Source: a virus (lineage: Duplodnaviria; Caudoviricetes). From it: a stretch of 57,878 nt of DNA. The translations under genes were made by a program, and so were the position numbers. The stretch spans positions 1 through 57,878 of the IMG/VR virus record IMGVR_UViG_3300043178_000021; one strand, 5' to 3'. Each line of letters starts with the position of its first letter. Position 1 is the first letter of the stretch. Below are positions 4,989 through 28,218 of the stretch, piece after piece. A model generated the notes under the pieces. It made no database searches. It was not told the DNA's origin and saw nothing but the letters and a program-made list of their open reading frames with translations.

Positions 4989-5049
4989 TGACGAGCCAGA
5001 CGAAACGCAATCCTCCGCTGCGCCCGCCACCACTCAAAGGACGATGACC

Positions 5050-8327: not shown

Positions 8328-8488
8328 TGGCGGCATTCACGGTCGGGCACAACACGCAGGGTCAGGTTGGAGGCACTGATCCAATCGGAGGGGCTGATGC
8401 CTTAACGCCGCCTGAGATACCTCAAGTGGTCATGGCTTGGCCGCAGCCGGCCCAATGGGGCGGCGTGGCCGGCTGGAATAAGCCTTGA
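8327..8488 (+). CDS. Small hypothetical protein (53 aa, MAAFTVGHNTQGQ...)
   Basis: TGATG coupling upstream and TTGA coupling downstream; fills the gap exactly. Confidence 0.6.
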   Translation: MAAFTVGHNTQGQVGGTDPIGGADALTPPEIPQVVMAWPQPAQWGGVAGWNKP

Positions 8489-9309
8489 CGCAGTACGTCC
8501 GCTGGCCGAATTGGGCGCGCGGGTGGACGCAGCCGCGCCGCGTATCGCGGAACGTAGGTGGCCTGACGCCGACTAGCGGCACGACCGTCAGCGCGCCAGT
8601 CGTCACGCACACCTATACCGGCCAAGCGCCCCAGGTACGCGCCCGTGTGCAGCCGGCGCAGGTACCCCACACCTACACCGCGCAGGCTCCGCAGTTCGTC
8701 TACACCGTTCGCCCCGCGCAGGTCACGCACACCTACGTCGCGCAGGCGCCGCAGGTTCGAGCCAAGGTCCAGCCTGGGGTCGTAACTCACACCTACACGG
8801 CACAGACTCCGCAGGTCAGGGCGAGGGTGCAGCCTGGCCAGGTAACGCACACCTACAGCGCGATCGCCCCGCAGGTACAGGCCCGCGTACAGCCGGGCGT
8901 GGTGACGCACACGTACACGGCGGTCGCGCCGAAGTTCGGCGCCACACTCCGGGTTGGGATCGTTACCCACACCTACACCGCCGTCGCCCCGCAGGCGCAG
9001 GCCAGGGTGCAGGTGCCGGTTGTCGCGCATACATACCTGGGGCAAATCCCGGGCGTCCAAGCCGGCAACACCGTCATGGTGCCGACTGCCGCGCATACCT
9101 ACGGGGCGCTGACGCCAGACATCATTGCGCAAGCCGAGGCCCCGTCTCAACCGGCCTCGCCAAGGGGCGGTGGTGGTGGTAGCCTGATCTCCCTGGATCG
9201 CTTTAGGAAGCGCGCCGCCGAAGATGCCCAGAGGGTCACTGACGACCAGGATAGCGATGATCTAATGCTCGCAGCGATGGCGTTCACAATTCTACGGAGG
9301 GCCGCCTGA
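8485..9309 (+). CDS. Repeat-containing fibre-like protein (20-aa VTHTYTAQAPQVRARVQPGV repeats)
   Basis: Eight units at an exact 60-bp period plus a ninth diverged unit. Confidence 0.75.
   Translation: MTQYVRWPNWARGWTQPRRVSRNVGGLTPTSGTTVSAPVVTHTYTGQAPQVRARVQPAQVPHTYTAQAPQFVYTVRPAQVTHTYVAQAPQVRAKVQPGVVTHTYTAQTPQVRARVQPGQVTHTYSAIAPQVQARVQPGVVTHTYTAVAPKFGATLRVGIVTHTYTAVAPQAQARVQVPVVAHTYLGQIPGVQAGNTVMVPTAAHTYGALTPDIIAQAEAPSQPASPRGGGGGSLISLDRFRKRAAEDAQRVTDDQDSDDLMLAAMAFTILRRAA
8599..9120 (+). repeat. Coding tandem repeat, 60-bp period
   Basis: Units start at 8602, 8662, 8722, 8782, 8842, 8902, 8962 and 9022 and differ mostly at synonymous sites. Confidence 0.9.
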
Positions 9310-15300: not shown

Positions 15301-18300
15301 GCGGATACCGCATTATGGTTGCCCCGAGGAAGGGGGACGGCGGTCGGTACTACCTAGATCAGGAAATGCGCGCCGCCACCGGAGACTTCACAAAGGTCGG
15401 GCAGTGGATGCGCGCGCAGGTAAATGAGCGAGAAGCCGCGCTTGCGCTGCGCAGGGCAATGGAGCTGGGTGCGCAGTTCCAGGCGACCTCCAACAAGGAC
15501 GTTGCCCTGGATGTGACAGGTCAGAAGCGCGTGGAGCAGGTGCGCGCGCTCTATGGCGAGCAGTTTCTGGTAGAGGCAACGCGCGGGCATTATAGAAAGG
15601 GGGCAAGGCCAGATGCGACACCAGCCATCGAAGACAGTGCCGTTCAAGGGGTGCTCGATCTATATCGCGCCGGGGAAACTGCGCCTGTGCCAGTGGGTGA
15701 TCGTGGATGGCAGCCCAAAGTACGCTACCTCGCCCAAGGCATCGCGGAGCGCATCGCGGTCGCCGGCGCGGAGGAGATCCGCGGGCAGGTGATTCGTAAC
15801 GCGCACGACCTGGCGGCCATCATGCAGCTCTACCGCGATCCGCGGTTCGAGACGATGCGCTGGGTGTTCACGCGCGAAGGAAAGGCGGTCGGGCATGTTG
15901 GCGTGAGTGCGCGCCTGCCGAGCGTCGCGCCCGGCTTCCCGATGGGGGTCGAGCCCTTACAGTGGCTAAAGGAGCAGGTCGAGGCGACGGGGGCCGATGC
16001 CGTGTGGTCGGTACACAATCATCCAAGCGGCAATCCAGAGCCTAGCCCCGCCGATCAGGGCCTGCAGCGCCACATCGCACGCATGCTTGCACAGGTGAGC
16101 CAGGAGCTAGGGCGCGAAGTCAAGGCGATGCCGCACGTCGTCATCGACACCAACAGCTATGCGGTGATCGAGAACACCGGCCAGTGGATCATCCACAGGC
16201 GCAAGTTCGGGGACGAACATCTCCTGGTTGCCTCCATCGACCACGAGATACTCGGCACCCAGGTGCGGCAGCCGGAGGATGTCGCCAGGGTCGGCCGGCG
16301 CTTCAAGCGCCAGGGCTGGGTCACGCTGATTGCGGCGACGGTTCCGCCGTATCCCGCAACGACCCGCGTTACGCAGGTGCGCGCAGTGGCGGAGGTGCCG
16401 GAGGCGGTGCTGTTGAGCGCGCGTGGCGGGGCCGCGATTCGCCGCTTCGCCAGACAGACCGGCGCGATGCATGTCTTCGCCGCAGGCTTTTCCGCAGAAA
16501 ACTTCGACTATTTCACGCAGCTCACCGCGGACGGCTTTCTGTTGGACGCCGTGGATGAGCAGGGAATCCCGACGCTGTCCAGGCTGATGGCCCCCAGCGA
16601 CAAGTTCTTCGGGGCAGATGTTCCGCACGCGCGCGCCGTCGCGCAGGCGAAGAAGTTGCGCGCGTTCGGCATCCCGGCCGATGCGGCGTTCATTTACGGC
16701 GACACCAGCACCACCGGCCTGAAGATGCACCCGGACTATGCGGATGCGAAGGAAGGGGACTTCATGGCCGCCGCTAGGTTGGCGGAGGACATGGTCACGA
16801 GCGACATCATCGAGCGCGTGGAGGGACTGGGGCCCGTCATCTTTGCGCCCGTCTCCGCTTCCGAGCGCAGGGCCACCAACAGGATCCCGGGCGCGATGGC
16901 GGCCTATCTGGCGAAGCGCACCGGGAACAAGCACGCGGTCGGGCGCATCGCACAAAGCTCGCGCGCGTCGCACACCGGCGCGACGCTGATGGATCGCATG
17001 CTCTCGCCGGCAACCTTCTCGGGCAAGGTCGAGGAGGGCGGGCGCTACGTGCTAGTGGACGACGTTGTAACGTCCGGGGCGACGCTCGCGAACTTGGCCG
17101 ATTTCATTCAGGCGAACGGCGCCCAGGTAGTGGGCATCGTCACCTTGTCCAACATGACGCGCGGCAGTAGAATTGCCGCTGACCCCGCGCAACTCGGGGA
17201 CGTGGAGGCGAAGCATGGGAGCACAATCCAAGAGCTTTTTGCGATCGACCACTCCGCCCTCACGGCAGTCGAGGCCGACTACCTCCTCCGATTCCGATCT
17301 GCTGACACCCTCCGAGCTCGAGCGGCTGAAGCGCGGCGAACAAGAGGCGGCCATCTACTACGAGAGCCGCTGGGCGAATACGGGGCCGACGAAGCCGGCC
17401 CAATCGTAGAGTCCGAGCGGCTGACCGAGCCGCTGTTCGCGCACATCTACACGCCGGAGGAGCGCGCCGCCGCGACGGCGATCCTCGGCAAGCGCGTGCG
17501 CGAGTCTATCAGCAACCGGCTGTTCCGTGTCCCGGTGCAGGCCCTTGGTATCGACCGCCGGCTGCGCGCCGGCATCGACCTGGTACTCGAAAAGACGTGG
17601 GGATTGCTGCCAGAAAAGGCGCAGGAGCGGCTGGCCGCCGGGTTGGTATCCGACTACTGGCTCGATGAGGGCGTGGTGGATCGCCGCGCTCTGATGTATT
17701 CGGCCATCCGCCGCGGCTATCGCGGCATCGAGGAGGCCCTGCTGTCCCTGGGCAACCTCACCAGGGCAGAGTCCCGAGTAGCCTACGAGTGGATGAACGC
17801 CGACCACCCGCAGGCGGCGGACTACTTCATGCAGCAGCTCTCCGACGAGAGCATCGCGGCGCTCACCAGGGTGATGCAGGCGATCGACCGCTTGAGCGGA
17901 GAGGCGGTGCGCCTGGGCCAGCTTGGCGCGGATACCTACGAGCGGAATCGGTTCGCCTACCTGCGCCGGTCCTACGAGAGCTACGTCCTGGAGGCCACCC
18001 CGCAACAGAAGGCCATGATGGCGCGCGCCAAGCAGATCCTCGGGGATCAGTACAAGGGTCGCGGCATTTCCTACAAGGTGGACGCCTCCGACCTGTCGGC
18101 CACAGACCCTACCTGGTGGGGCAGGAAGGCGCAGGCGGGCCGCGCCGACTTGGGTCTGATGGGCGAGAAGTTCCTGCGCCTGGAGCGGCGTGCGGCCGCT
18201 CCTGGGGCCGGAGCGGGAATCCTTGAGGGGATGGAGGGCGGCGAGGAACGACCGGGGAGGCTTCTCGAGGTCAAATACTGGCCGGCTGAGGTGCCGGTGC

Positions 18301-20132
18301 CGCTTCGCCTACAGTCCTGGCAGCAGGACCGGCACACCTGGGAGGTCCGCAACGTAGAGCGCGGCAAGGTCAGCCTGTGGCGCGACTTCACGAAGGAGGA
18401 GCGCGAGCGCATGGGCGAGATCGATGAGGTCCGCTTCGCCATCGCGCGCACCCTGCAGCAGATGATCCATGATGTCGAGGTTGGCCGATACCTGGAGTGG
18501 CTCGCCAATACCCATGCCCTGCCGGAGCCGCCCGCAGGGGCGGTGACAGTCGAGGCGGCCGAGACGCTGCGCCAGACCTATACCCCGAAGGAGTGGGTCA
18601 AGGTGCCGTCTACCGAGATCCTGAAGACCGGGGGGGTCAAGAAGTACGGAAAGCTCGCTGGCCTGTGGGTGCCGGGCCCGATATGGAATGACGTGCGGCA
18701 GACCGTGAGCATGCGCTACGAGCCCCTGGGCCGCGCCTACGCGACGATCCTGAGGGCCTGGAAGATCAGCAAGACCGCGCTCTCCCCCGCGGTACACATG
18801 AACAACGTGATGGCCAACGTCATCATGGCCGACTGGCATGACGTGTCTCCCCGCCACGTCCTGCTCGCGCTCGAGATCATGCTGCGCGACAAGCCAGAAC
18901 ACCAACTGATCATGCAGAAGTTCGAGGACTCCGGCGCCATGCAGGGGATGTATGTCCTGTCGGAGGTGCAGAAGGAGCAGTTACGCCCGCTCATGGACCA
19001 ACTGCGCGAGGCAGTCCAGGAGGCTGAGGGCACATCTGCCTGGGTACAGATGGGTAACGTCGTGTCGATGATCGCGCACGGCAGGCTCCGGGAGGCCGTT
19101 GCGGCCGCTCGGCAAAGCGCCGCCACCGGGGTGGTGCGTTGGCCGGTCGCCAAGATGATGGCGCTCTACGAGGCGGAAGACACGGTGTTCCGCCTGGCCG
19201 CCTTCCTCAAGGCAAAGTCAGATGGGGCGGACGACATTGTGGCCGGTCGGGTCGCGCGGGATAGCTTCCTTAACTACGAAATCAATGCGCCGTGGATCAA
19301 CATCATGCGCAACACGGCGTTCCCGTTCATCGGGTTCACCTACCGCGCTATCCCGGAGCTGCTCAACGTGATACGCAACAAGCCTTGGAAGCTCATGAAG
19401 CTCGCCACGATCTTGGGGGCGATCAATGCGCTCGGCGCGGCCTTGGCTGGCGCGGATGATGATGAGGAGCGCAAACTGCTGCCGGAGGAAAAAGCGGGGT
19501 GGATCTACGGCGCGCTCGGACCGAATCTGCTGCGCCTGCCGTGGAACGACGACTACGACGCCCCGATGTTTCTGGATGTGCGCCGGTTCATCCCGGCGGG
19601 AGACATCTTCGACATCGGGCAGACCAACGCGGCTTTCCCGCTCTTGCCGTTCCTGGTGCCCGGTGGGCCGCTCGGCATGCTCGCCGAGCTGCTCGCGAAC
19701 AAGGTGCAATTCACCGGAAAGCCGATCGTGGCGGACACGGACACGCCGCGCGAGCAAGCCGAGAAACTGCTGGCCTACGCTTATCGCTCCCTTGCGCCCA
19801 ACGCAGTGTGGGTGCCTGGGTCATACGCCTGGAACGCGCTGTTAACTGCCGGCCAGGGTAAGACGGACGTGTTTGGGCGCGAGCAAAGCGTGGGCATGGC
19901 GGTTGCCTCCGGCTTCGGTCTGAAGGTCGCCGCCTATCCGAAGGACGTGGGGCTCTACAACGCCAACTCCAAGCGTGAAGCTCAGGTGCGCGAGATTCGC
20001 GAGCAGATCGGGAAACTCAAGCGCGAATACTCGCGCCGCGGGCTCACCGACGAGGAGTTCGAGGCGGGGCTGCAATACCAGCTCGAGAAGCTGGAGCGCG
20101 TCAACCAGGAGTACCTGGAGAAGCTAGACTGA
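9309..20132 (+). CDS. Giant DarB-like polyvalent protein: iPPase-like, N6-adenine DNA MTase, Strawberry-notch SF2 helicase, RadC/JAB, PRTase, helical C-terminal domain
   Basis: YGYVKRTVGKDGDQVDVF/DEHK (iPPase-like); YSTP, YEPTAGNG, ANPPFG (MTase); GDQTGIGKGR, FDESHN, QMLGRIHRTGQ (SBNO helicase); HNHPSGNPEPSPAD (JAB); LVDDVVTSGATL (PRTase). Confidence 0.92.
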   Translation: MAGLSACLKKIGLEKHEAAILKGLARDKLDEGLEGHAAAEQAVREYIETLLTERADIARQVLRAGGVMPEEPSVPDLGTVDASAHDAASSPRNQEPEPTPEQKKAGNYKKGHVRVAGLDVAIETPAGSWRWSYDLERIAQVAKLLESKDLTVNENTARNEITIALEKFRLGEPMDGAHSLAAAERGLRRNFPALAEVIENILDRGWRIKMASHYGYVKRTVGKDGDQVDVFVRVGTPLDYDGPVFVVDQQKGNGHLDEHKIMLGWTDVDAARKAYLDNYERGWGGLKNITEWTLPQLKQWLAGGDLERPAIEAAAPLTPAEEIASRFLMGKGFESIGEAREVVGKLIGKDIKPGTPEAKLADEIIELGAVLAARDIVRAPVSARQAYGHLVHLYEELMPALYVRTSGSIERQAYSTPLPLAFVASELAEIDAFKSVYEPTAGNGALLIAANPDSKGTEVNEIDPQRAAALAAQGFKPQSYDATERGAAWPGKDVVIANPPFGVTRDKKGKTRSFDMGGGYVTNEVDHVIALKSLGSMKDDGRAVLIIGSVNMLAKTPEARSDAYHAKAKREFFFTLYNKYRVVDHFTVSGDLYAKQGAAWPVDVIVIRGKGKSTLPLPAVSPPRQYTSWEQLAEIFDADYQNRLGTAAQGDVPEPGGESTGTTGGGAPGGGGAAGPRQLLSGAGGATQPGDGGAGARGGRGDAGVSHRGGTASGAPGARGGGRPRTGVDAEPGAAPPPADAGGAGAGLAGAGAPQEQPEGGGAAGGVDAASVGGPAALPPSGRPVSAEADAQAAQDLQDALGELADIFGKKGRLNITPEQEQRLLPVLTKLFDAAFRRGYHKFREAARYVLNAVRQALGAVADLISLEHLQGAYIAMSARYRSQGAEAAKDVIAVQALAEIEPPPTPPEKSLRDRQAESETEHQVMYEPASTAAGLGTLIPANLKTVTKDALRALVRAVGDIDEFVMSKLGWTREQLTARLGAEQVDALALALYNFDKGSGVIIGDQTGIGKGRVVASIIAYALKEKLVPIFVTEKPNLYADIYRDLKAVGLGKVRMLMTNAGQDVPMDDGAWALRAPPLAKHNATMDALMRAGKLSGYDVILTTYNQMQTIKGGERTLRMNFLEQFAKGGVVIFDESHNAGGTDAPKRGEETSGKTGRAGFARSIAAVARGVIYSSATYAKHPSVMDLYFRTDMRLAVEKIEDLPGAIAAGGVPLQQVVATMLGAAGQYIRRERSFSGVRYDVVEIAVDKEVAQRAALLLREINDFERKFIRPAIRNIKADAKAAAGSAQTVGPQITSTSFGQIMHNLIDQTLLQMKVVAATQKALEALKADQKVVLTVANTMGSFIEEHIAQTNIHAGDAIRMGVADLFARYLQKTRRYVYKAPFQKGQGVTLYTSDEQLGQLGVRAFERVLKMIRDSEELFSDIPLSPIDYMRAELRRAGYKVEEITGRATYLEYHADGTVTYEIRPPKETSIAGRVDAVRRFNSGEASVIILNQAGATGLSLHASETFADKRQRHMMIVQAEKNIDTHMQMLGRIHRTGQVVVPQYSQLAADIPAEQRPAAVLAKKMASLNANTTASRRSAVTAEAVDFMNAYGDEAAARVMWDNQDAHDLIGSPLKINDDGDGFVTEDAITKVTGHIPLLDLDQQRAIYDLIVQAYRDRVELADAMGENVLEAKTLPLDARTINKTMIFEGRGGDSPFSQPAYAERMDVKKIGKPYMPEQVTQMVRVALGVPASDQSIFELADLAEQNAQKMLRETRERLTKFMEEKILQATTAPGEAGMPVPVKLTPDDENAITGFRLLQERNARLVQELLTNYRIGTHVELHGLWGSIPGIVIDIEHNTRTHNPVALGAWKLKVAVPDAIRQLKIGLNDLAMGASDAPQRGVGIQPYAGDDPVLPMFTAAQSVTREERTVMTGNLLAAFGKFQGGQVAMFTDNTGAIRQGVVMPARFNIGEAISKQPVEFTTPEQVITFIGRSATKVFASNGLIGIEPYRSGYRIMVAPRKGDGGRYYLDQEMRAATGDFTKVGQWMRAQVNEREAALALRRAMELGAQFQATSNKDVALDVTGQKRVEQVRALYGEQFLVEATRGHYRKGARPDATPAIEDSAVQGVLDLYRAGETAPVPVGDRGWQPKVRYLAQGIAERIAVAGAEEIRGQVIRNAHDLAAIMQLYRDPRFETMRWVFTREGKAVGHVGVSARLPSVAPGFPMGVEPLQWLKEQVEATGADAVWSVHNHPSGNPEPSPADQGLQRHIARMLAQVSQELGREVKAMPHVVIDTNSYAVIENTGQWIIHRRKFGDEHLLVASIDHEILGTQVRQPEDVARVGRRFKRQGWVTLIAATVPPYPATTRVTQVRAVAEVPEAVLLSARGGAAIRRFARQTGAMHVFAAGFSAENFDYFTQLTADGFLLDAVDEQGIPTLSRLMAPSDKFFGADVPHARAVAQAKKLRAFGIPADAAFIYGDTSTTGLKMHPDYADAKEGDFMAAARLAEDMVTSDIIERVEGLGPVIFAPVSASERRATNRIPGAMAAYLAKRTGNKHAVGRIAQSSRASHTGATLMDRMLSPATFSGKVEEGGRYVLVDDVVTSGATLANLADFIQANGAQVVGIVTLSNMTRGSRIAADPAQLGDVEAKHGSTIQELFAIDHSALTAVEADYLLRFRSADTLRARAAEARRTRGGHLLREPLGEYGADEAGPIVESERLTEPLFAHIYTPEERAAATAILGKRVRESISNRLFRVPVQALGIDRRLRAGIDLVLEKTWGLLPEKAQERLAAGLVSDYWLDEGVVDRRALMYSAIRRGYRGIEEALLSLGNLTRAESRVAYEWMNADHPQAADYFMQQLSDESIAALTRVMQAIDRLSGEAVRLGQLGADTYERNRFAYLRRSYESYVLEATPQQKAMMARAKQILGDQYKGRGISYKVDASDLSATDPTWWGRKAQAGRADLGLMGEKFLRLERRAAAPGAGAGILEGMEGGEERPGRLLEVKYWPAEVPVPLRLQSWQQDRHTWEVRNVERGKVSLWRDFTKEERERMGEIDEVRFAIARTLQQMIHDVEVGRYLEWLANTHALPEPPAGAVTVEAAETLRQTYTPKEWVKVPSTEILKTGGVKKYGKLAGLWVPGPIWNDVRQTVSMRYEPLGRAYATILRAWKISKTALSPAVHMNNVMANVIMADWHDVSPRHVLLALEIMLRDKPEHQLIMQKFEDSGAMQGMYVLSEVQKEQLRPLMDQLREAVQEAEGTSAWVQMGNVVSMIAHGRLREAVAAARQSAATGVVRWPVAKMMALYEAEDTVFRLAAFLKAKSDGADDIVAGRVARDSFLNYEINAPWINIMRNTAFPFIGFTYRAIPELLNVIRNKPWKLMKLATILGAINALGAALAGADDDEERKLLPEEKAGWIYGALGPNLLRLPWNDDYDAPMFLDVRRFIPAGDIFDIGQTNAAFPLLPFLVPGGPLGMLAELLANKVQFTGKPIVADTDTPREQAEKLLAYAYRSLAPNAVWVPGSYAWNALLTAGQGKTDVFGREQSVGMAVASGFGLKVAAYPKDVGLYNANSKREAQVREIREQIGKLKREYSRRGLTDEEFEAGLQYQLEKLERVNQEYLEKLD
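11218..11664 (+). CDS. Nested +1-frame acidic, Leu-rich protein (148 aa)
   Basis: GGAG at 11207-11210, ATG at 11218; G/C-ending codons and a globular-looking sequence in this frame, while the host frame is a Gly/Ala linker with A/T-ending codons. Confidence 0.75.
   Translation: MPTTKIAWAPPPRETYLNPVENLQGRLGAVRLEAGEPLDQDSYFLALAERLSRGMEELEPEEVEEMQEYLTAEGLLPARLVLEEGDDRALVWMQSPELRRRLLMLGVPGPDLPERAPLKSSPRAEALLAELTPLQWVGLLLYHPPDDQ
15613..15792 (+). CDS. Possible nested +1-frame peptide (59 aa, MRHQPSKTVPFKGCSIYIAPGK...)
   Basis: AAGGGGG SD-like site at 15597-15603; lies in the linker between the helicase region and RadC. Confidence 0.35.
   Translation: MRHQPSKTVPFKGCSIYIAPGKLRLCQWVIVDGSPKYATSPKASRSASRSPARRRSAGR
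17215..17409 (+). CDS. Possible nested +1-frame peptide (64 aa, ...SDLLTPSELERLKRGEQEAAIYY...)
   Basis: GGAGG at 17204-17208, ATG at 17215; at the end of the PRTase region. Confidence 0.4.
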   Translation: MGAQSKSFLRSTTPPSRQSRPTTSSDSDLLTPSELERLKRGEQEAAIYYESRWANTGPTKPAQS

Positions 20133-20140
20133 ACAAGTCT

Positions 20141-20199
20141 GCCTGCCCGCTCTCGCGGACAAGGCGCTCCCTGCGTCGTTGTGCGAGGCAAAGTTAGGC
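20141..20199 (+). mobile_element. Degenerate attC-like site 1
   Basis: GCCTGCC (degenerate R'') ... CTCGC/GCGAG, ACAA/TTGT and GGCGC/GCGTC stems ... GTTAGGC (R'). Confidence 0.55.
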
Positions 20200-20207
20200 G
20201 TCAATAG

Positions 20208-20594
20208 ATGTTGACCAAGCGCCTGCGATAGCTCTTTCAAGAAGCTAGAACTCGGAAGGATGAGCTTGACAAACAGGCGCAGGATAACTTCGCTTATCGC
20301 TTGGCAAGCCAGTCAGTCGCATCTCACATAGACGATCTCGCGCAGCAGCTCGGCGCGCTGGATGAGGTTGTATTGGAGGGCACAATTGAACTGCTTAGCA
20401 AACGTGAGCGCATTTAGCTTCGGACAGACGTAGGGCAGAATGTTCGCGTCTTGTGTCCAAAGCGTCTGTTGCGTGACGTATCAGAACTGCACCTAGATCA
20501 GCACGTCCGCTTGCGCTGTTGCGTAACGGAGACCGAGAACCCATTGACCGGAGAGTCTTCAATCTTCTATGAGTTGCTTGAGATTGTCAGCTAA
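20208..20594 (+). pseudogene. Integron-cassette gene with two in-frame TAG stops
   Basis: ATG 8 nt after GTTAGGC; TAG at 20229 and 20415; terminal TAA lies inside the next attC R'' box (AGCTAAC); AT-richer than the flanks. Confidence 0.75.
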
Positions 20595-20646
20595 CCTCGC
20601 AATGCACCGGAGCGCCTGCGGTGCCCGGTCATGCGCGGCGTTAGAC
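20589..20646 (+). mobile_element. attC site 2 (58 bp)
   Basis: AGCTAAC...ATG(C)ACCGG...CCGGTCAT...GTTAGAC: R''/R' boxes and L boxes with one extrahelical base. Confidence 0.85.
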
Positions 20647-20647
20647 C

Positions 20648-21094
20648 TCACACCGCTTCCCATAGGCTCTTTTGGCCTCGAAGAATTTCGGCTGTGTCCA
20701 CTCTCGGCCTGCTTCGCACGTTCCAGTTACCGCCACCACGCAGCCCCAACAAACGCCACCCCGCAGCGCGCAGGCTGGCCCCTCCCTCTTCCGGCAGCGT
20801 GTAGGTAATGAGCCGCCGAAACCCAAGCGCCTTCGCTGCCCTCCACGCCGCTCCGTACAGCATGCTGCAGGCGTTGCGCGCCCCATCTGTACAAACCCGG
20901 TTCACTTCCAGCGTCCACCCGTCGTCGCTCATGCGCGCCACAGGTCTGCCAACAATCGCCACTCCACGCACTACGCCATCTTTGTCACTAACGGCAATAC
21001 AGAACTTCGCGCCCGGCACTGGCTTATGATGGCGATGGTGGCGTGATATAAAGGCGTTGGCCTCTGCCAGTCCGATCGGTGTTACCGTTAGCAT
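20648..21094 (-). CDS. XF1762-family (Mom-like GNAT-fold) putative DNA-modification protein
   Basis: EANAFISRHHRHH...GVAIVGRPVAR..DDGWTLEVNRVCTDG.RNACSMLY...ITYTL..EGGASLRAAGW. Confidence 0.8.
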   Translation of the reverse strand: MLTVTPIGLAEANAFISRHHRHHKPVPGAKFCIAVSDKDGVVRGVAIVGRPVARMSDDGWTLEVNRVCTDGARNACSMLYGAAWRAAKALGFRRLITYTLPEEGGASLRAAGWRLLGLRGGGNWNVRSRPRVDTAEILRGQKSLWEAV

Positions 21095-21112
21095 ATAGTG
21101 CTTTCGCTGCCA

Positions 21113-21170
21113 GCATAACTTGCGCATCGACTGGAGCGCCTGCGGTGCCCGGTCATGCGCGGCGTTGGGC
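21113..21170 (+). mobile_element. attC site 3 (58 bp)
   Basis: GCATAAC...GTTGGGC; shares GGAGCGCCTGCGGTGCCCGGTCATGCGCGGCGTT exactly with site 2. Confidence 0.85.
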
Positions 21171-21189
21171 CGATACGCAACGTGGGATG

Positions 21190-22167
21190 CTAGGCTAGGT
21201 CAAACCTGAACTTACTGCCGGCGAGATATTCTTCCAGCATCTCCACCGCAATCCAGCGTCGCCCTAGGCTTTCCGCCACAGCTCCTGCTGTGTTCGAGCC
21301 GGCGAAAGGATCGAGGAGAACGTCATCTTCGTCTGTGAGCATTTTAAGAAAGAACTCGGGCATGGCGGCTGGGAACCTGGCTGGGTGAATCTTTATGCCC
21401 GCTTCTTTGCACCTTTTGGTGTATGGATCGTTGCTGGCGCTATTGCCCAGCTTGAGGAAATTTGTAGGGCTTGCATCTTCGAAGACGTTCGGTGCTATCG
21501 AGCCCCCGGCAGAGATATCGCCGAACGCCTCCTTGATGTTGTGTACAGAGGGACGCACTGCCGTTTTCACGCCACGCTCGTTCAACCTCAGTATGTCTCG
21601 ACTGTAGGGACGTAGGACTCGTCGGTTGTCGGCCTTCGGCCATGGCGTCTTCGACAACCACCAAACATTCTCTACCGCATCCTTGACCCTTATTCGTCGA
21701 ACCGCAACCCACTCAGTTGGGACGGGCATCTTTGCCGGGTTGTACCAAAAGCATTCCTGTGCCAAGTGGAACTCGATCTCTTCCACTAACGCAACGAGGA
21801 GCTTGTACTGATAGAGCGACTTTGTCGGTACCCCGGGATTCCAGGTCCCGCCTATGTTGAGCACAAAGCTCCCGTCTTCGGCTAAAGTTCTATGAATTTC
21901 CCGAGCGAACGCAAGGAACCAGTCAACGTACTGGTCCCTGTGAACATTGCCGTACTCTTTCTTGAAGTGAAGGGCATATGGCGGTGACGTAAAGACCAGA
22001 TTCACTGAACCACTGGGAATTGCCTTCAAGACGTCGAGCGAGTCCCCCAGGTAGGCAGCTCCCTGGTCCGTGTGGTAGTAGGGCGGGAACCCTGGAACAA
22101 GTTCGCAGGGGTGTGGTGACTGACCGAACTGGAACCTCAATGCTTTGGGAGAGGAAGGCGATAGCAT
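21190..22167 (-). CDS. Orphan beta-class N4-cytosine/N6-adenine DNA methyltransferase (M.PvuII-like)
   Basis: FTSPPY motif IV precedes HPARFP...LDPFAGSNT motif I; no cognate endonuclease adjacent. Confidence 0.9.
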
Positions 22168-22227
22168 GGTCTAGGTTCTCAGAGAGGGTACTGTAGGCCA
22201 GTTACCCAGCGTAAGAAGCCGCGCCAG

Positions 22228-22305
22228 GCGCCTGACCTCCGACGTTAGGGGTGGGTTATGCCCCACTGTGCCGCCATTGGTCCCGCCTTAGCTGCAACGT
22301 TGGGC
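22228..22305 (+). mobile_element. Two truncated attC 3' halves
   Basis: CCTGACCTCCGACGTTAGGG (ends 22250) and CCCGCCTTAGCTGCAACGTTGGGC (ends 22305) look like L'-R' ends; R'' boxes are missing. Confidence 0.55.
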
Positions 22306-22500
22306 GTCGTTGTCGCTCCACCTGTCGATAGCCTCTTCCGCTTCTTGTTTGTTGCGATAGGGACCGTGGCAAATCGGCTGATCCGAATCGTCATAACTCG
22401 CCCAATACAACCCGCTGCGCGGTTCGTCCGGCGTTTCGCAGCCGGGGAAAACGGTATAAATCGTCGGGCGTCGCGGCATTGCCTTCAGGCCCACGGCCAT
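22288..22500 (-). CDS. Small hypothetical protein
   Basis: GLYW...HGPYRNKQEAEEA motif common in small phage proteins. Confidence 0.6.
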   Translation of the reverse strand: MAVGLKAMPRRPTIYTVFPGCETPDEPRSGLYWASYDDSDQPICHGPYRNKQEAEEAIDRWSDNDAQRCS

Positions 22501-22670
22501 AGGATCGCCGCCGCGATCAGGGCGCAGGCGATGAGAATCTCCGCGATATCGCGCCAGTGCGTGCGCGCGCGCAGGATTTCTGGCGGAGTGAGCCAGTCCT
22601 CCTTACCCGTGGTGCGATCGTGCGCGAATCCAATGTCTAAGGTGCTTTGCATACGCTGGTGCCCTACCAT
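22485..22670 (-). pseudogene. Possible N-terminal remnant of a phage N6-adenine methyltransferase fused to a hydrophobic tail
   Basis: GKEDWLTPPEILRA resembles the DxWxTP start of phage Dam-like MTases; the rest of the domain is absent. Confidence 0.4.
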
Positions 22671-22672
22671 CG

Positions 22673-23065
22673 CTAGGCCTGCCAGTCATCAGTTATGGCG
22701 GTCATGGATTCAGGCAGTGCGCCGCGGTGCAGGTCAATGCGGCCGCCGTAGTACCCGTTGCTGCTGTTCCGGTACACGATGTTTGCCACCCCCCTGGCGG
22801 TGCGCAGCTTCAGGCCGTAGAACTGGTCGTGCTCTTGCCGTGTGCGCTTGTCGTCCACGGCCGGCAGTTCCACGTTCTCGACTTTCAGCACCTTGCCGCC
22901 CAGCAGCGCGCTAACGCCCGTGATGTCCGCAAACCAAGTTTCGGAGCAGCAGTCGCCCCAGGTCGCGTAGCTAGTGCTGGCGCCGTCCGGGTGGTCAAAC
23001 GTCAGGATGCTTTGGTCTTCGTTCACGCGCAGGCCGGTCACGGTCTTGCCAATCAGTTCTCTCAT
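22673..23065 (-). CDS. Conserved phage protein (DCCSE...SSNGYYGG family)
   Basis: SD GGAGGT; ELIGKTV, GDCCSETW and SNGYYGG motifs. Confidence 0.8.
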   Translation of the reverse strand: MRELIGKTVTGLRVNEDQSILTFDHPDGASTSYATWGDCCSETWFADITGVSALLGGKVLKVENVELPAVDDKRTRQEHDQFYGLKLRTARGVANIVYRNSSNGYYGGRIDLHRGALPESMTAITDDWQA

Positions 23066-23091
23066 GTCACCTCCAAGGTTGTGGCGAGCAG

Positions 23092-23126
23092 GCCTAACCC
23101 GTCGCTCAAGTTGAGAGCCGCCACAG
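23092..23126 (+). mobile_element. attC 5' half (R''-L''), truncated
   Basis: GCCTAACCCGTCGCTCAAG is a canonical attC start; no R' box found downstream. Confidence 0.65.
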
Positions 23127-23244
23127 TACGCATCCTCGCACAGATAGGCAGTAGGGATCACATCCCAGGCATCTGCCCATCCGTCTGTGCGACGATCTAG
23201 CCCCAGCGCCTGCACCACGTCTGCTGCGACTGCGGATATGCGGG

Positions 23245-23670
23245 TCACGACTCTACAATCTCCAGACCGTACAGCTCGCGCATGAGTCGCTTCTTGCGTT
23301 GGTAGTCTCGCGTGCGGTAACCCTTCGTGTCCTCGACAACGAACCGGCGGTGGTGGATGTCGAAGTAGACGAAGTCAGCGACGTAGGTTTCGAAGTGCTG
23401 CACGCCCACTACACCGGTCGCCATGAGCCTGAAGCGTACTTGACGCGAGAGACCTGTGATGTGGCCGGCGCGCTCGAGCATCTTCAGGTGCGCGGCGCGC
23501 TTGGCCTCTAGTTGGCTGTCGGACGTGCCATCTTCGGTGGTCGTCTTGACGTTGTTGTACTTCGAGCGCGACGGCTTCGCGCTGTGCGCTGTGGTGGCCT
23601 GCGCCAGCGCCTTGTAGCGGGCACCGAGGCGCGCGATCTCCTGCTCTGTTAACCGAAGACCGCGGCCCAT
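23245..23670 (-). CDS. DUF1064-family PD-(D/E)XK nuclease
   Basis: SKYNNVKT...DSQLEA...YVADFVY...VEDTKG...YQRKKRLM. Confidence 0.88.
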   Translation of the reverse strand: MGRGLRLTEQEIARLGARYKALAQATTAHSAKPSRSKYNNVKTTTEDGTSDSQLEAKRAAHLKMLERAGHITGLSRQVRFRLMATGVVGVQHFETYVADFVYFDIHHRRFVVEDTKGYRTRDYQRKKRLMRELYGLEIVES

Positions 23671-23676
23671 TGCCGG

Positions 23677-23859
23677 CTAATCCTGGCGCCCCTCGATGTC
23701 CGCCTTCACCTGCGCGATCTTGATGCGGTTGCGCAGGCTGAGGGCGTCGATCTCCTCGTCGGTGGGCTCGCGCTGCTCGGCCGCCAAGGTCTGCGCGAGC
23801 GTGAGCGAGGCTATTGCGATTTCGTAGACTGCTGTCAATCCGATGCCAACTGCCATCAT
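23677..23859 (-). CDS. Small hypothetical protein
   Basis: ATGA-coupled; MMAVGIGL...AEQREPTDEE. Confidence 0.6.
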   Translation of the reverse strand: MMAVGIGLTAVYEIAIASLTLAQTLAAEQREPTDEEIDALSLRNRIKIAQVKADIEGRQD

Positions 23860-24023
23860 TGCCCCCTGTAGACGTAGGTTTCGAGCTGCGAGAGGATTGC
23901 CTGCGCCGCAGCGAGCTTGCTTTGCGCGGCAGAACAATCTGTTTCGACCGGGCACATGGAAAGCGCGATGCCGGCGGCGTCCAGGGCGTCCTGGGCGCGC
24001 TCGGCCAGGCTCACGCGGTCCAT
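23856..24023 (-). CDS. Small hypothetical protein
   Basis: SD AAGGAG; TGATG coupling. Confidence 0.6.
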   Translation of the reverse strand: MDRVSLAERAQDALDAAGIALSMCPVETDCSAAQSKLAAAQAILSQLETYVYRGQ

Positions 24024-24811
24024 CACGTTCTCCTTGCGAGTTGAGTTTCCTGATACCCCTCGGTGCCCGGCAGCACGTCGCCGAGACGCCCTTCCGAGAC
24101 TTTCGCCTGCGCGTCCAGCTTGGCCCGGGGGATCTCGACCAAGTGCAGCCATGCCGGATGCGCCGCAATGAAGGTCACGAGTTTGTGCAGGTTGACCACG
24201 CGCCCCTTCCACGGGCGGCGAGAGGACAGGCCAGTAATCTTGATGGGGGCCGCAACGGGCACGGCAGGCATGGTAGCGAGTTCCTCTGTCTGCACTTGGG
24301 CCTCCAACACGGCGCTCTCGGCCTGCGCGAACAGTGCGTTGGCCTCCACCATGTTTCCGGCGGCCTCGGCCTCACGAGCGGCTGTGATCTTGGCTTCCGC
24401 CTCCTTGCGAACCGCGTCCTCGCGCGCCGCCGCCTCGCGGACTGCGCGCTCGTACTCCTCTCTGCGCTTCTGTTCGGCCTCGCGCTCGGCGGCGATGCGC
24501 TTGCGCTCCTCTTGGTCCAGATATGCCGCCATACGCCCCTTGAGGGCTGTCTCGGCAGCCTTCGCGCGCTGGATAGGTGAGCGGAACAGCGCGCGCACGC
24601 GCTCCTCGGCTTCCGCCAGGGGGGCAAGGATTTTCTTCTGCTCGGCCTCGATGTTGCGCAGGAAGGTCTTGATCGCCCCGAGTTCATCGTTCGCCAGCTC
24701 GAGCATTTCCCTGCTGTCGATGATGCACAGCTCTGCGGACCGCTCCAAGTGCACCACCTGCCTTTCCACGGACTGCGCATCGGGCCGTTCGATTGTGACG
24801 CTTTCCAGCAT
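24023..24811 (-). CDS. Coiled-coil protein of the phage recombination block (Gam/Gp157-like context)
   Basis: Long helical N-terminus, GLSSRRPWK...LPG C-terminus; adjacent to the exonuclease. Confidence 0.65.
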   Translation of the reverse strand: MLESVTIERPDAQSVERQVVHLERSAELCIIDSREMLELANDELGAIKTFLRNIEAEQKKILAPLAEAEERVRALFRSPIQRAKAAETALKGRMAAYLDQEERKRIAAEREAEQKRREEYERAVREAAAREDAVRKEAEAKITAAREAEAAGNMVEANALFAQAESAVLEAQVQTEELATMPAVPVAAPIKITGLSSRRPWKGRVVNLHKLVTFIAAHPAWLHLVEIPRAKLDAQAKVSEGRLGDVLPGTEGYQETQLARRT

Positions 24812-24820
24812 GATCGCCTC

Positions 24821-25459
24821 CTAGACGTTGTACTGCCGCTTCCAGCGCCACAGGCGCAGCAGCGACGCGAACATGGTGAAGTCGTGCGCATGCGTGTTGA
24901 GCGGTTCGCGCAGACGATAGGTTCCGTCCTTCCGAAGCAGAAGTGTGGCGCGGATGACCCCAAGCGGCAATAGATCCTTGCCGCGGAACTGGTTGCGCCT
25001 AGCCTCGGTGTAGGCGGCCAGTTGTAGATCGTATGCCGGGTGCCAGCCACCTGTCTTGATGTCCAGCAGGCACGGAACGCGCCGTGCTATCTCTGGGTGC
25101 GCAATGCTGTAGTAGTGCTGCAGCGTGCCGATTCTGTCAGGAGTCCCGGCGTACATGAGGGTAGGATGATAGGTGGGCTCCTCCGATTCGTCCCACAGCG
25201 GCTCGTGCTCCTCCCGAAAGCGGCGATACGCCTCCAAATAGGGCGCGTACTCCTCCGGCACTGCGCTGTCGTCGAGGTCGTCCTCGTCGAGCAGGCAAGT
25301 CGCCTTGTGTACCCAATCTCCCCGGGCGCGCGCCGCGTCCAGTAACTCCTCCGGCACCACGGTCCAGTTGGTGACTTGCTCCAACACGCGCGTGACGTTC
25401 GGGATGGCAACGCCGCCCACTGAGTAGGTGTGCGAAGCCTTGTCGAAGACTAGCGTCAC
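24821..25459 (-). CDS. PD-(D/E)XK exonuclease (Cas4/RecB-like)
   Basis: PNVTRVL, RGDWVH, YAGTPDRIG, LLDIKTG, QLAAY. Confidence 0.85.
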   Translation of the reverse strand: MTLVFDKASHTYSVGGVAIPNVTRVLEQVTNWTVVPEELLDAARARGDWVHKATCLLDEDDLDDSAVPEEYAPYLEAYRRFREEHEPLWDESEEPTYHPTLMYAGTPDRIGTLQHYYSIAHPEIARRVPCLLDIKTGGWHPAYDLQLAAYTEARRNQFRGKDLLPLGVIRATLLLRKDGTYRLREPLNTHAHDFTMFASLLRLWRWKRQYNV

Positions 25460-26385
25460 GCCGCTGTCGCCTCAGCGGCATCGGGCACGTACCCGGCGGG
25501 ATCGGCAAGGAACTTCTTGGCCTTGTTGAATTCGACTAGGGTCAGTCGGCCCAGCACAATGCCCGTGGCTCTCTGAAACTCCTCCTGGGTAATCGCAGCA
25601 GCCTCGAGCTTCTTGGTGATGTATGCCACCTCCCCTTCCGTCGCCGCGCGCCCTGGCGGCTCCTCGGATGGCGGCCTGTCGCCTTCTGGCGGGACGCCGC
25701 TCTTGCGCTGCGGAGGCGGCGGAGTGTCTTTCTTCGGCGGCTCGTCGGTATCCACGCCGACGATGTGATCGCGCAATTCGTCGGTAAGGTCCTCCAGGTC
25801 TTGATTGAAGGCGTCGCTGGCCGCCAGGACCGCGAGGGTCATGGCAATGTGCGCCCGTTTCACGGCCATCTTGAGGATGGTGTTGGCGAGGTCGGCCGGC
25901 TCAGTGCGCACTTGGAGCAGCTCGAACTCCTCACGCCGCTGCTTGTTGTACCCGAACTTAATGCGCCGCATGTCCTCCGGCGTGTTGTCCCATTCTTTGC
26001 GCGCCGCCCTGCGCCACTTGTATTTCTCCTCGTGGCTCGAGCACTCGCCGACACCCTCGCCAAGCGTGGCCCCGCTGAGTTGATGCACACCCTCCATAGT
26101 GATCCGGTAGCGCACCATACCCTTCACCGACAGGTCGTCGATCTGGCGGATGTGCGGTGCGATGCGGAAGGTCATGCACAGAAGTTCGGCTCCCGGCTTC
26201 CAGAGCGAGGGCTTGTCCGTGCCTGGGATCACGCCGTAGTGCTTATCCCGCACCATCACGTTGGCCATCACGGAGCGGATCAGCGCTACGTGCTGCGCCA
26301 CCTCGCCGATGCTCAATTTCTGCTCTGCCGCCCCTACCTGCATAGGCGATGGCTGCGCAATGACCTGGCCTGCGGACTCGTTCAT
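25456..26385 (-). CDS. Putative single-strand annealing protein (Rad52/Erf-like)
   Basis: HYGVIPGTDKPSLWKPGAE...GEGVGECSS...NTILKMAVKRA...FNQDLED; paired with the exonuclease. Confidence 0.65.
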   Translation of the reverse strand: MNESAGQVIAQPSPMQVGAAEQKLSIGEVAQHVALIRSVMANVMVRDKHYGVIPGTDKPSLWKPGAELLCMTFRIAPHIRQIDDLSVKGMVRYRITMEGVHQLSGATLGEGVGECSSHEEKYKWRRAARKEWDNTPEDMRRIKFGYNKQRREEFELLQVRTEPADLANTILKMAVKRAHIAMTLAVLAASDAFNQDLEDLTDELRDHIVGVDTDEPPKKDTPPPPQRKSGVPPEGDRPPSEEPPGRAATEGEVAYITKKLEAAAITQEEFQRATGIVLGRLTLVEFNKAKKFLADPAGYVPDAAEATAA

Positions 26386-26759
26386 GCGGATGCTCCTGTG
26401 AGTTTGGCACGGTTCTGGAGTTGGGCAAGCAGATGCGCCTCCAGGGTTTCAATCTGCGCATCGCTCATCAACCCATAGAGCGGCGCGCCGGATGCGTACA
26501 CGGCCAGGACTTCCACGAGCGGATCGGCCGAGCCGATTCCCGTCTCGTCGGCCGGGTAGTAGATGTAGGGCACCTGAGCGTGGACAGTGGCCGCCAAACC
26601 CTGCACCGTGAGCGTCACAGCAATCTCGGCCACCGGAGCGTGCTCCAAGATCTGATTGTGTTGCGCGCGATGGCGCATGCTGGATAGGTCCACCGCATTG
26701 CGCTTGAGTAGTTTCGTGATCCGCCGCAAGCCCTTCAGAGTGATGGCTTCCACGATCAT
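26382..26759 (-). CDS. Hypothetical protein
   Basis: Coupled ORF in the leftward operon. Confidence 0.65.
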   Translation of the reverse strand: MIVEAITLKGLRRITKLLKRNAVDLSSMRHRAQHNQILEHAPVAEIAVTLTVQGLAATVHAQVPYIYYPADETGIGSADPLVEVLAVYASGAPLYGLMSDAQIETLEAHLLAQLQNRAKLTGASA

Positions 26760-27043
26760 TACCTCACGCGACGCAACAGCCGATCGGCGGCTGGCGATTT
26801 AGTACACCAGACTTCGACGTAGGTCTGTCCTTCGCTCCAGCGGGCGTGTACGTTGACCTGTTGGTAGGTCGTATCGTCCAGGCGGCAGTCCAGGGGGTGC
26901 AGGTCGAGTGGGGAGGATTGCCCAGGCAGGTATATCCGTCCGTGCGGCAAATCCACTAACTGCGTATCTGTGCGCGCGCTGCGCGCCCCCATGTAGAGCA
27001 GCATGAGCGCAAAAGAACACACCAGCACGAACAAGGCGCGCAT
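26759..27043 (-). CDS. Hypothetical membrane-anchored protein
   Basis: SD AGGAGG; N-terminal TM segment. Confidence 0.65.
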   Translation of the reverse strand: MRALFVLVCSFALMLLYMGARSARTDTQLVDLPHGRIYLPGQSSPLDLHPLDCRLDDTTYQQVNVHARWSEGQTYVEVWCTKSPAADRLLRRVR

Positions 27044-27062
27044 AGCACCCTCCTGAGCAGCA

Positions 27063-27126
27063 AGTTTGCGTTGCGAGGCGCAAACTGTCAAGATGGGATT
27101 GCATTTCTCGCTCAATTTTGTATGCT
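27063..27126. promoter_or_regulatory. Divergent sigma70-like promoters with a palindromic operator
   Basis: Minus strand TTGACA(27091-27086)-N17-CAAACT; plus strand TTGCAT(27099)-N16-TATGCT(27121); inverted repeat AGTTTGCG-N8-CGCAAACT at 27063-27086. Confidence 0.65.
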
Positions 27127-27150
27127 GGCGCTGTTATCTGTGGAGGGTGT

Positions 27151-27405
27151 ATGAACGCTAGGAAGAAAGCGCGAACGGTGGGGCAACGCATGCAGGGCGC
27201 CTGTCGTCTGGCGGTCCGCAAGATGGGTGGCCAGTCCGAAGCGGCTCGCCGACTTACGAAAGCGGCCGGCAGGCGAATCTCGAGACAGGCCGTTGGGCAG
27301 TGGTGCAAGGTGCCGGATTCGTGGTTGGTCGTCGTCGAGCGGCTTTCCGGGATTCCCCGCGAGCAACTGCGCCCGGACCTGGCCGCCCTAGCCATGCGCA
27401 AGTAG
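27151..27405 (+). CDS. Cro/YdaS-like HTH regulator
   Basis: GGQSEAARRL...ISRQAVGQW..VP...IPREQLRPDL; SD GGAGG. Confidence 0.85.
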   Translation: MNARKKARTVGQRMQGACRLAVRKMGGQSEAARRLTKAAGRRISRQAVGQWCKVPDSWLVVVERLSGIPREQLRPDLAALAMRK

Positions 27406-27414
27406 CGCCCGGCC

Positions 27415-28218
27415 ATGCCCACTAGGATTCTCCGGGCCGAGCTGTTGGATTCCGAGGCGTGGTTAAGCCTCAAGGACAACGCAGACCGGGCAGCCTGGAT
27501 CTCCTGCTTCCTTTCGGTGGACACGCTGGGCAACATGCCGGCCGGCACCTACCGGCTCATCAAGCTCTGGCGCTGCTACGGCATCGAAACCCCGGAAAAG
27601 ATCGCCAAGGTTCTGGCCGAATTGGCCGATGTAGACCTGGTTCGACTGTACGAAATCGACGGCAAACCATTCCTGCATATCCCGCGTTTCGGGCAGTCTA
27701 GGCGCTATCTAGGCCATGTTTGGCCGCTTTCTCCGTGGAACACAGAAGAAGAAAAACAAATGGTTGCGCGAAAAGCTCCTGTGAACCGCAGGTGTGCTCG
27801 GGCGACGCACGGTGAACCGCCCCTAGGGGTAGGGGTAGGGGTAGGGGTAGAAGTAACTACTACCAGCCTTACTCTAACGAGTAAGGCTGGTCGTCAGAAC
27901 TCGCGTTCTGACCCGCCCCCGCCTGTGGATCAAGTCCCCTACGCCAAGATCGTCGATTTGTACCATCGAATGCTCCCGGAACTGCCGCGGGTGGTGAGGC
28001 TGAGCGAAGCCAGGAAGGGGCAAATACGCGCTCGCTGGAAGGGCAAGGACGCCGAGGACCTGAGCGACTGGGAGGCGTTCTTCGGGTTCGTGCGCAAATC
28101 CAAGTTCCTGATGGGGGCGGGCACGCCCAGGGACGGGCGCAAGCCGTTCCGGGCCGATCTACCCTGGCTGATCCGTGAGGAAAATTTCCTGAAGGTGCTG
28201 GAGGGGCGCTATGAGTAG
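27415..28218 (+). CDS. Phage replication initiator (lambda O-like architecture)
   Basis: N-terminal wHTH-like region, low-complexity middle, C-terminal LP.V..LSEARK..IRARW...ADLPWLI...NFLKVLEGRY. Confidence 0.8.
   Translation: MPTRILRAELLDSEAWLSLKDNADRAAWISCFLSVDTLGNMPAGTYRLIKLWRCYGIETPEKIAKVLAELADVDLVRLYEIDGKPFLHIPRFGQSRRYLGHVWPLSPWNTEEEKQMVARKAPVNRRCARATHGEPPLGVGVGVGVEVTTTSLTLTSKAGRQNSRSDPPPPVDQVPYAKIVDLYHRMLPELPRVVRLSEARKGQIRARWKGKDAEDLSDWEAFFGFVRKSKFLMGAGTPRDGRKPFRADLPWLIREENFLKVLEGRYE
27781..27891. other. Probable replication origin inside the initiator gene
   Basis: GTGAACCGC direct repeat (27781, 27812); (TAGGGG)x4 at 27824-27847; perfect 13-bp hairpin at 27862-27891. Confidence 0.6.

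Follow-up and report, generated by a model that had tools for sequence, protein, structure and literature searches.

The 57,878-bp viral record IMGVR_UViG_3300043178_000021 (Duplodnaviria; Caudoviricetes), which was analysed at its full length and is referred to below as the window, probably carries at positions 20208–21170 an integrase-less cluster of two integron-type attC sites. The cluster comprises a decayed cassette in the classical orientation and an intact, inverted 524-bp cassette whose gene encodes an XF1762-family, Mom-like GNAT protein. It sits where a block of plus-strand genes ending at 20132 converges with the leftward operon, a block of minus-strand genes extending from about 27115 down to 20648. 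Its outline is given by two 42-nt direct repeats (20606–20647 and 21130–21171; 93% identical, 524 nt apart), which bracket one minus-strand open reading frame (ORF) only and share a 31-nt exact core present in two copies in the window. Extended leftward, each repeat becomes a 58-nt imperfect hairpin leading from a box that ends in AAC to a box that begins with GTT. The features of the cluster are:

20208–20594, plus strand: decayed cassette gene, sense to the attC top strand and antisense to the leftward operon
20589–20646, top strand plus: attC-like site 1; boxes R'' AGCTAAC and R' GTTAGAC, spacers of 5 nt (left) and 6 nt (right), and a 3-nt loop between the L'' arm, which has two extra bases, and the L' arm
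20641–21164, plus strand: putative mobile unit, a 524-bp cassette from the TT of the first R' box to the G of the second, containing the inverted XF1762 gene and its own attC
20648–21094, minus strand: XF1762-family, Mom-like GNAT gene, bracketed by sites 1 and 2
21113–21170, top strand plus: attC-like site 2, the cassette's own; boxes R'' GCATAAC and R' GTTGGGC, spacers of 5 nt (left) and 6 nt (right), and a 3-nt loop between the L'' arm, in which a C (position 16) and an A (position 23) are extra, and the L' arm

Geometry and strand of the two attC-like sites

The sites were assessed with a rule-based scan requiring an R'' box of the form nnnnAAC with at least three of the four RYYY positions, an exact R' box GTTRRRY, and spacers of 5 nt on the left and 6 nt on the right. 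The stem is anchored at the L boxes, with extra bases penalised lightly on its left arm and heavily on its right arm. Both sites have an exact R' box and an R'' box with AAC and three of the four RYYY positions, and they are the sole passes in the window. Site 1 scored 10.5 (density 0.66) on the plus strand versus 7.0 on the minus strand, and site 2 scored 12.0 (density 0.75) versus 5.0. Since the plus score exceeds the minus score at both sites, plus is taken as the top strand. When applied to plasmid R46 as a positive control, the scan recovered three of the four inter-cassette sites, for each of which the gene-sense strand gave the higher score, and missed the fourth because of its hybrid R' box. 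The extra bases agree with this assignment. In attC top strands they sit on the arm that carries AAC (Nivina et al., 2016, PMC5027507), and at both window sites they are placed as expected if plus is the top and minus the bottom strand. At site 2 they occupy positions 16 and 23, which are those of G16 and T23 in the bottom strand of attC-aadA7 (Nivina et al., 2016, PMC5027507).

That the repeats are a local duplication of 42 nt resembling attC by chance is highly improbable. G+C-rich DNA does fold well at random, but the 31-nt core occurred twice in none of 100 shuffles, and a site of such geometry was rare: among 1000 dinucleotide-preserving shuffles, one gave any pass at the lower level (10.5) and none at the higher (12.0). 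The bracketed gene, moreover, is independently a cassette elsewhere, as described below.

A covariance model of our own, R1, was built from 13 attCs (3 from R46 and 10 from arrays in phages and metagenome-assembled genomes, MAGs), with the window sites left out; it represents one sequence family. A third attC candidate, at 20128–20199, was rejected on a geometry score of 5.0, non-canonical spacers, a branched fold and the lack of a match to this model. A search of the window with Rfam at gathering thresholds returned no family.

The XF1762 gene and its cassette

The bracketed gene is assigned to the XF1762 family by the NCBIfam model XF1762_fam NF045478 (209 bits against a curated cut-off of 50) and to PHROG 1384, ‘Mom-like DNA modification protein’ (E 2e-39). 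The Pfam family Mom, PF25680, is matched at 27.2 bits against a gathering threshold of 27.1, with 130 of 202 profile positions covered. Its start is likely the ATG at 21092–21094, because the NCBIfam match spans residues 15–157 of the long ORF (20648–21127); the upstream in-frame ATG at 21127 would overlap attC-like site 2. The Mom-like protein of Burkholderia phage phi1026b is 71% identical. A phmmer search found no solved relative by sequence. An AlphaFold model based on 23 aligned sequences reached a predicted local distance difference test (pLDDT) value of 88, and in Foldseek phage Mu Mom ranks first (8bv8_B, E 1.3e-6, template modelling score 0.73), with general GNAT acyltransferases close behind; matches in the PDB at E≤0.001 numbered 192, of which those listed are Mu Mom and GNAT acyltransferases. 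Mu Mom performs DNA adenine carbamoylmethylation. The window protein resembles it in its GNAT-like fold, 8bv8 being the best structural match, and differs in sequence (16% identity) and length (148 residues versus about 230), while general GNATs score nearly as well.

The limits of the putative mobile unit follow the crossover position within the R box described in the relevant part of Nivina et al. (2016, PMC5027507). The identity of the two repeats stops just past GTT. The XF1762 gene lies on the attC bottom strand, with its own attC just 5' of the start and the cassette boundary one base past the stop. The cluster shares with the class 1 cassettes of R46 the R'' and R' boxes, the L''/L' pairing, an unpaired spacer, a single arm with extra bases, the presumed R-box crossover and a classical neighbour whose stop lies in R''. 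It differs in having the gene on the bottom strand and the attC at the 5' end. Unlike class 1 integrons, the replicon has no attI, Pc promoter or integrase, and its sites score 7.5 bits with the model.

The classical neighbour is a truncated, nonsense-mutated cassette gene. Its plus-strand frame runs from an ATG at 20208 to a TAA at 20592–20594, within the R'' box of site 1, and in the read-through translation in-frame TAG codons stand at 20229–20231 and 20415–20417. Five homologous proteins were found at E≤0.001, the best being the 219-residue P0002 (55% identity, E 1e-29). The alignment spans both stops and covers only residues 89–217 of P0002, so that the copy is truncated as well, leaving the C-terminal ~130 residues. 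No Pfam or PHROG family was matched. The first-pass annotation had described the only classical cassette as pseudogenised, and the two stops and the truncation bear this out, for a gene that lies outside the coordinates it had named.

The first-pass annotation had also suggested a search of bacterial integrons for the same cassettes, and an inverted XF1762 cassette was found in three bacterial loci:

L094, contig of a Rhodocyclaceae MAG, 3100–5153: complete integron, with an integrase at 473 bits against a cut-off of 265
L096, Gallionella MAG: XF1762 gene between opposite-strand attCs; the adjoining HicA/HicB and 72-residue ORF cassettes are classical
L119, another MAG: XF1762 gene flanked by opposite-strand attCs

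The encoded proteins are 82–87% identical to that of the window in L094 and L096 and 67% identical in L119. In L094, eight model-supported attCs lead away from the integrase and occupy the expected strand. The first two, attI-proximal cassettes are inverted and co-oriented with the integrase gene, and encode a 90-residue ORF followed by the XF1762 gene (87% amino acid identity); the later ones are classical. These three loci resemble the window in that the XF1762 gene is inverted and flanked by attCs. The junction TGA-G-GTCTAAC after the stop codon, read on the gene-sense strand, is identical in L094 and the window, and the sequences diverge beyond it, which is what recombination at the R box predicts. 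The loci differ from the window in that their attCs belong to the common sequence family (50–67 bits), with bodies unlike those of the window sites, in that L094 has an integrase, and in that their other cassettes are classical save the 90-residue ORF heading L094.

More widely, XF1762 relatives were found in at least 575 viral contigs and at least 343 genome stretches. Matches to the attC model occur at 5 of 80 viral and 3 of 80 genome XF1762 loci, and each of the 22 matches is on the opposite strand to the gene (12 of them at sites outside the training set). In Burkholderia phages the gene is packed among overlapping neighbours, beside a methyltransferase. At two viral loci (L007:4439–4900 and L064:483–1182) the attC loop contains the ribosome-binding site (RBS) and start codon of the next phage gene, and the attC arm encodes the first residues of the next protein, with a common AQGPVDV stretch (DUF551-like); a recombination site is here embedded in gene starts. 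At other loci the XF1762 gene is flanked by RBS-containing direct repeats that are not attC-like (L032:3964–4480, 28 nt; L015 and L018, 16 nt), which suggests a second, homology-based way of moving this gene.

A host integron integrase acting in trans probably moved the cassette between a bacterial integron and the phage, either by recombination of attC with attC or by insertion at a GTT-type genomic site. Integrases do insert cassettes at genomic ‘attG’ GWT sites in E. coli chromosomes, as set out in the part of the preprint used here (Loot et al., bioRxiv 10.1101/2022.09.11.507474). Such insertion would offer a route into a replicon without an att site, and the right end of the cluster, G|TTGGGC, is compatible with it. 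In contrast, the left end is a truncated cassette, so that a clean insertion of two cassettes is undemonstrated, and the host in the portion of Loot et al. considered is E. coli, not a phage. The truncation implies that the cluster either has decayed since or arrived by another route.

Several results weigh against an integron-type cluster at 20208–21170. The geometry thresholds were chosen once the sites were already known. Model R1 gives each site only 7.5 bits (E 0.17 in 641 nt), which is non-significant, and across the full window its seven matches at E≤10 include neither of them, the best chance match there reaching 13.1 bits. At site 2 it barely separates the strands (7.5 bits plus versus 6.8 minus). 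Folding energies are no better than those of shuffles (z −0.9 to 0.0), and 59 of 200 shuffles held some AAC...GTT candidate that folds equally well per base; as sites and shuffles were not separated, folding energy was dropped as an attC test. The plus strand also folds better than the supposed recombinogenic bottom strand (−14.1 and −15.3 versus −12.1 and −9.6 kcal/mol), because two pairs are G–T on plus. No integron integrase (TIGR02249) was matched in the 57.9-kb record, and most phage XF1762 genes stand without an attC, L007 being the only one of the 80 viral loci where one abuts the gene. Exact-word scans found no copy of the repeat in viral contigs (31-mer) or genome contigs (23-mer). 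Six 20-mer matches in metagenomes show no similarity beyond the 20-mer and are taken as chance, as are the matches of 17–47 nt (per-genome E≥2e-4) that were all a blastn search of 401 Rhodocyclaceae genomes returned for site 2. The nearest relatives of the phage, finally, share none of its leftward genes, which means that an empty or alternative site is not visible. The sites, in short, have the shape of attC without the sequence consensus of the common family. The first-pass annotation had taken plus rather than minus as the top strand, a view upheld by geometry and extra bases and not by the model or the folding energies. By the usual definition of clusters of attC sites lacking integron integrases (CALINs), namely two or more close attCs and no integrase, geometry recognises two sites 524 nt apart, the model not concurring.

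Some of these results would suit a different origin for the repeats, as phage intergenic hairpins (an RNA stabiliser, a processing site or a terminator-like element) between which the gene was shuffled by homologous recombination, as has been proposed for repeat-flanked accessory genes in other phages. We regard this as unlikely. It would account for the failure of the model to recognise the sites, for a stability no better than that of shuffles and for a phage without an integrase, and the repeats around the XF1762 gene in L032, L015 and L018 offer a parallel. However, the repeat exists in two copies only in 58 kb and at no other gene junction, its spacing and extra-base positions match those of attC, its identity ends at GTT, and the post-stop junction is that of a real integron. 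Nor does a T-run follow the hairpin on either strand, and a terminator scan found no match there.

An integron-type origin could also lie further back, with sites that have since drifted out of function, a gene now fixed and a hairpin 5' of it that serves expression only. Fossil attCs of this kind, which we rate as rather improbable, would explain the departure from the sequence consensus, the one mismatch in each R'' box, the decayed and truncated left neighbour, the similar depths of cassette and flanks in metagenomes and the lack of a contig across the cassette. Yet the sites retain 93% identity over 42 nt, including the 31-nt exact core, and all L-box pairing is kept through differing left-arm sequences, which is unexpected under free drift.

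The metagenome evidence comes from two freshwater runs that contain the stretch, one of them perhaps derived from the sample of origin, and in both the Logan contigs break at the repeats. Neither run yielded a contig joining across the cassette. Sequencing depths of left flank, cassette and right flank were 41.3, 35 and 37.6 in the first run and 5.3, 5.3 and 5.5 in the second, values that are compatible with excision or with its absence. Comparison of the region with phage records by megablast and blastn gave no match, and a search with 24821–25459 gave no phage relatives. The C-terminus of the giant protein encoded to the left of the cluster has counterparts in two distant contigs (51% and 40% identity), in which 12 leftward-operon proteins found no match other than one weak one (E 7e-4). 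Relatives, word scans and the two runs gave no sign of swapping, of an empty site or of an excision product in this phage. The first-pass annotation had envisaged a swappable kit in the window; what can be demonstrated is one cassette rather than three or four.

Orientation and cargo of attC-adjacent genes in viral contigs

The inverted position of the XF1762 gene was set against a census of viral contigs, which were scanned with a strand-specific degenerate attC pattern derived from alignment A1 and representing one attC sequence family. At least 120 loci with at least 141 sites were found. At the 129 distinct sites with at least 300 nt on the 5' side, the longest plus-strand and minus-strand ORFs within 600 nt were compared with Pfam at E≤1e-5, and among the matches listed an annotated gene was present at 26 sites, a fifth of the total. 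Six of these are classical (SMR, AadA, a peptidase, SUKH, an RNA ligase and one N6_N4 methylase). The other 20 are inverted and comprise MT-A70 (two), N6_N4 methylases (five), C5 methylases (two), Mom (five), Lar, a PAPS reductase-like protein, DUF5131, DUF3268, a pentapeptide protein and one divergent integrase; 17 of the 20 begin within 32 nt of the attC. The covariance model supports all 26 sites (28.8–58.4 bits), and up to nine co-oriented attCs occur per locus. No two of the cargo proteins exceed 43% identity, and megablast over 500 nt revealed no similarity among the loci, from which it follows that the cases are independent. In the viral loci L240, L280, L263, L271, L273, L298 and L307 the inverted cassettes encode Lar, a PAPS-reductase-like protein and five distant Mom-family proteins (27–37% mutual identity). 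Orientation from ORF length alone had been tried and was dropped, its controls being ambiguous (36 classical, 49 inverted, 51 mixed and 5 with no flanking ORF, then 22, 27 and 81 ambiguous).

As a control, the pattern used for the viral contigs was run on 151 bacterial genomes and yielded 19 sites in 16 of them, with no match to the reversed pattern. All eight annotated genes in this control are classical, and none is a DNA-modification gene. Orientation differs between the two sets (viral, 6 classical and 19 inverted; bacterial, 8 and 0; Fisher, p = 2.2e-4), as does the share of DNA-modification cargo (16 of 25 viral versus 0 of 8 bacterial; Fisher, p = 0.003), figures to be read in light of a small bacterial control and of IMG/VR contigs that may contain host DNA. 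Methyltransferases, Mom or Lar make up 15 of the 19 inverted viral genes. A bias of phages toward inverted, anti-restriction-rich cassettes appears real in this sample. In the literature covered, mostly in the form of listings and abstracts, neither Mom-like or XF1762 cassettes nor a biased orientation of phage cassettes was found to be described.

Phage attC clusters with methyltransferases are already known. The phage CALINs described by Qi et al. (2023, Front Microbiol, PMC9892861) have, like the window, two or more attCs, no integrase and a cargo of N6_N4 and other DNA methyltransferases, for which a role in access to anti-restriction genes was proposed, and with IntI1 five of six phage attCs tested there recombined with attI1. 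As a rule, the cassettes were ‘oriented in the same direction’, with divergent sites in one phage. The parts of that paper covered here mention no genes antisense to attC, no Mom-like cassette and no cassette shared with a bacterial integron. The window sites, moreover, depart from the usual sequence consensus. The inverted Mom-like cassette and the orientation bias go beyond what those parts of Qi et al. (2023, PMC9892861) describe.

The first-pass annotation had attributed the inverted arrangement to phage transcription, which would favour cassettes read in its own direction. In the window the co-oriented gene is intact and the antisense one has decayed, and only a gene co-oriented with phage transcription would be expressed and kept. 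A scan of 19800–27600 found no sigma-70-like promoter, which fits expression of the XF1762 gene by read-through of the leftward operon. The gene is, however, inverted in bacterial arrays too, so that inversion is built into the cassette rather than selected in this phage; the transcription idea explains retention, not how the cassette was built. Once expressed, the GNAT would probably modify phage DNA to escape restriction, alongside the orphan methyltransferase next to it. From these data we infer integrase action, expression, DNA modification and anti-restriction in this phage.

How a gene comes to be joined to its attC, and with it the origin of integron cassettes, is a long-standing question. 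One conceivable course is that attCs land between resident phage genes, which would thereby become excisable units. A bolder reading, tentative and in our view doubtful, is that phage attC arrays consist of phage-adapted, mirror-image integron cassettes, with the bottom strand on the sense strand 5' of each gene and a cargo mainly of DNA-modification and anti-restriction genes. Trapped phage genes would become inverted cassettes, be exchanged between phages by host integrases and be deposited at attI-proximal positions of bacterial integrons, and phages would be one birthplace of cassettes and carry a swappable anti-restriction kit. The position of the first two cassettes of L094, inverted and at the attI-proximal end, would fit a recent capture from phages.

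Neighbouring genes and significance

The genes on either side of the cluster are:

21190–22167, minus strand: beta-class N6/N4 DNA methyltransferase (PF01555, E 2e-37)
22288–22670, minus strand: two overlapping small ORFs of 70 and 61 residues, no family match in Pfam or PHROG
22673–23065, minus strand: DUF7448 gene (PF24240, E 1.7e-16) with a visible DCCSE motif; PHROG 2650, of unknown function
past the DUF7448 gene in minus-strand order, minus strand: DUF1064/resolvase-like gene, then exonuclease-like genes
9309–20132, plus strand: 3607-residue ORF with, by eye, an NPPF-type methylase motif and a DExH-type helicase region

In beta-class methyltransferases, motif IV (xPPY) lies N-terminal to motif I (FxGxG). 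The translation of 21190–22167 follows this order, with SPPY near residue 61 and DPFAGS near residue 287, and the NCBIfam adenine-methylase models score under their cut-offs on it. The gene has a G+C content of 0.55 compared with about 0.64 nearby, its closest phage relative (62% identical) is in a Dolichospermum phage, and its stop is found 25 nt past the R' box of site 2. On its 5' side, 22168–22290 lacks both AAC (plus strand) and GTT (minus strand) and has no ranked attC candidate, and no attC-like sites were found near five viral relatives. It might be conjectured that the methyltransferase is a cassette which no longer has its own site.

The DUF7448 gene, which has no attC-like sites at its ends, has relatives in 78 phage records, every one annotated as hypothetical. 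The 5' extension of its ORF contains, at 23079–23130, a short inverted repeat that carries GCCTAAC and GTTGAGA boxes 11 nt apart and scores 9.6 bits with the attC model; as an attC it was rejected as too short and is probably a chance match. The methyltransferase and DUF7448 genes are best regarded as ordinary neighbours, or at most as cassettes whose sites are lost.

The first-pass annotation had listed as intact minus-strand cargo an XF1762/Mom-like GNAT, a beta-class methyltransferase and a DCCSE-family gene. All three family identities stand, and the XF1762 gene alone is bracketed by attC-like sites. A Dam-like remnant, which it had also suspected, found no support: the 61-residue ORF (22485–22670) has no Pfam match at E≤10, and its best phage tblastn match reaches only E 0.7. 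The proposed packaging of phage genes between attCs finds support for the XF1762 gene, which is of phage type, lies between attC-like sites and is antisense to them, and none for the methyltransferase or DUF7448 gene. Enrichment for DNA modification, likewise, comes down to two genes in the window, DUF7448 being without known function, and finds its support in the wider viral sample (16 of 25).

The window is a whole viral record, estimated by CheckV to be 82% complete. It is labelled linear and has a 243-nt terminal repeat (1–243 and 57636–57878, 98% identical), on account of which it may represent a complete genome, terminally redundant or circularly assembled. The 3607-residue ORF may encode a DarB-like virion protein. 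The ORF at 8485–9309 contains seven tandem copies of a 60-nt unit (8602–9057, 60–75% identical).

Taken alone, the window has a modest yield, namely one intact cassette with divergent sites. Its interest lies in a phage-type gene that occurs in one back-to-front cassette form in three settings: a phage, integrase-less bacterial arrays and the newest end of a complete integron. If the orientation bias holds across all viral contigs, it would link integrons to the restriction arms race on the part of phages and not of bacteria alone, and it would provide a route for the genesis of cassettes, in which resident phage genes are caught between attCs.

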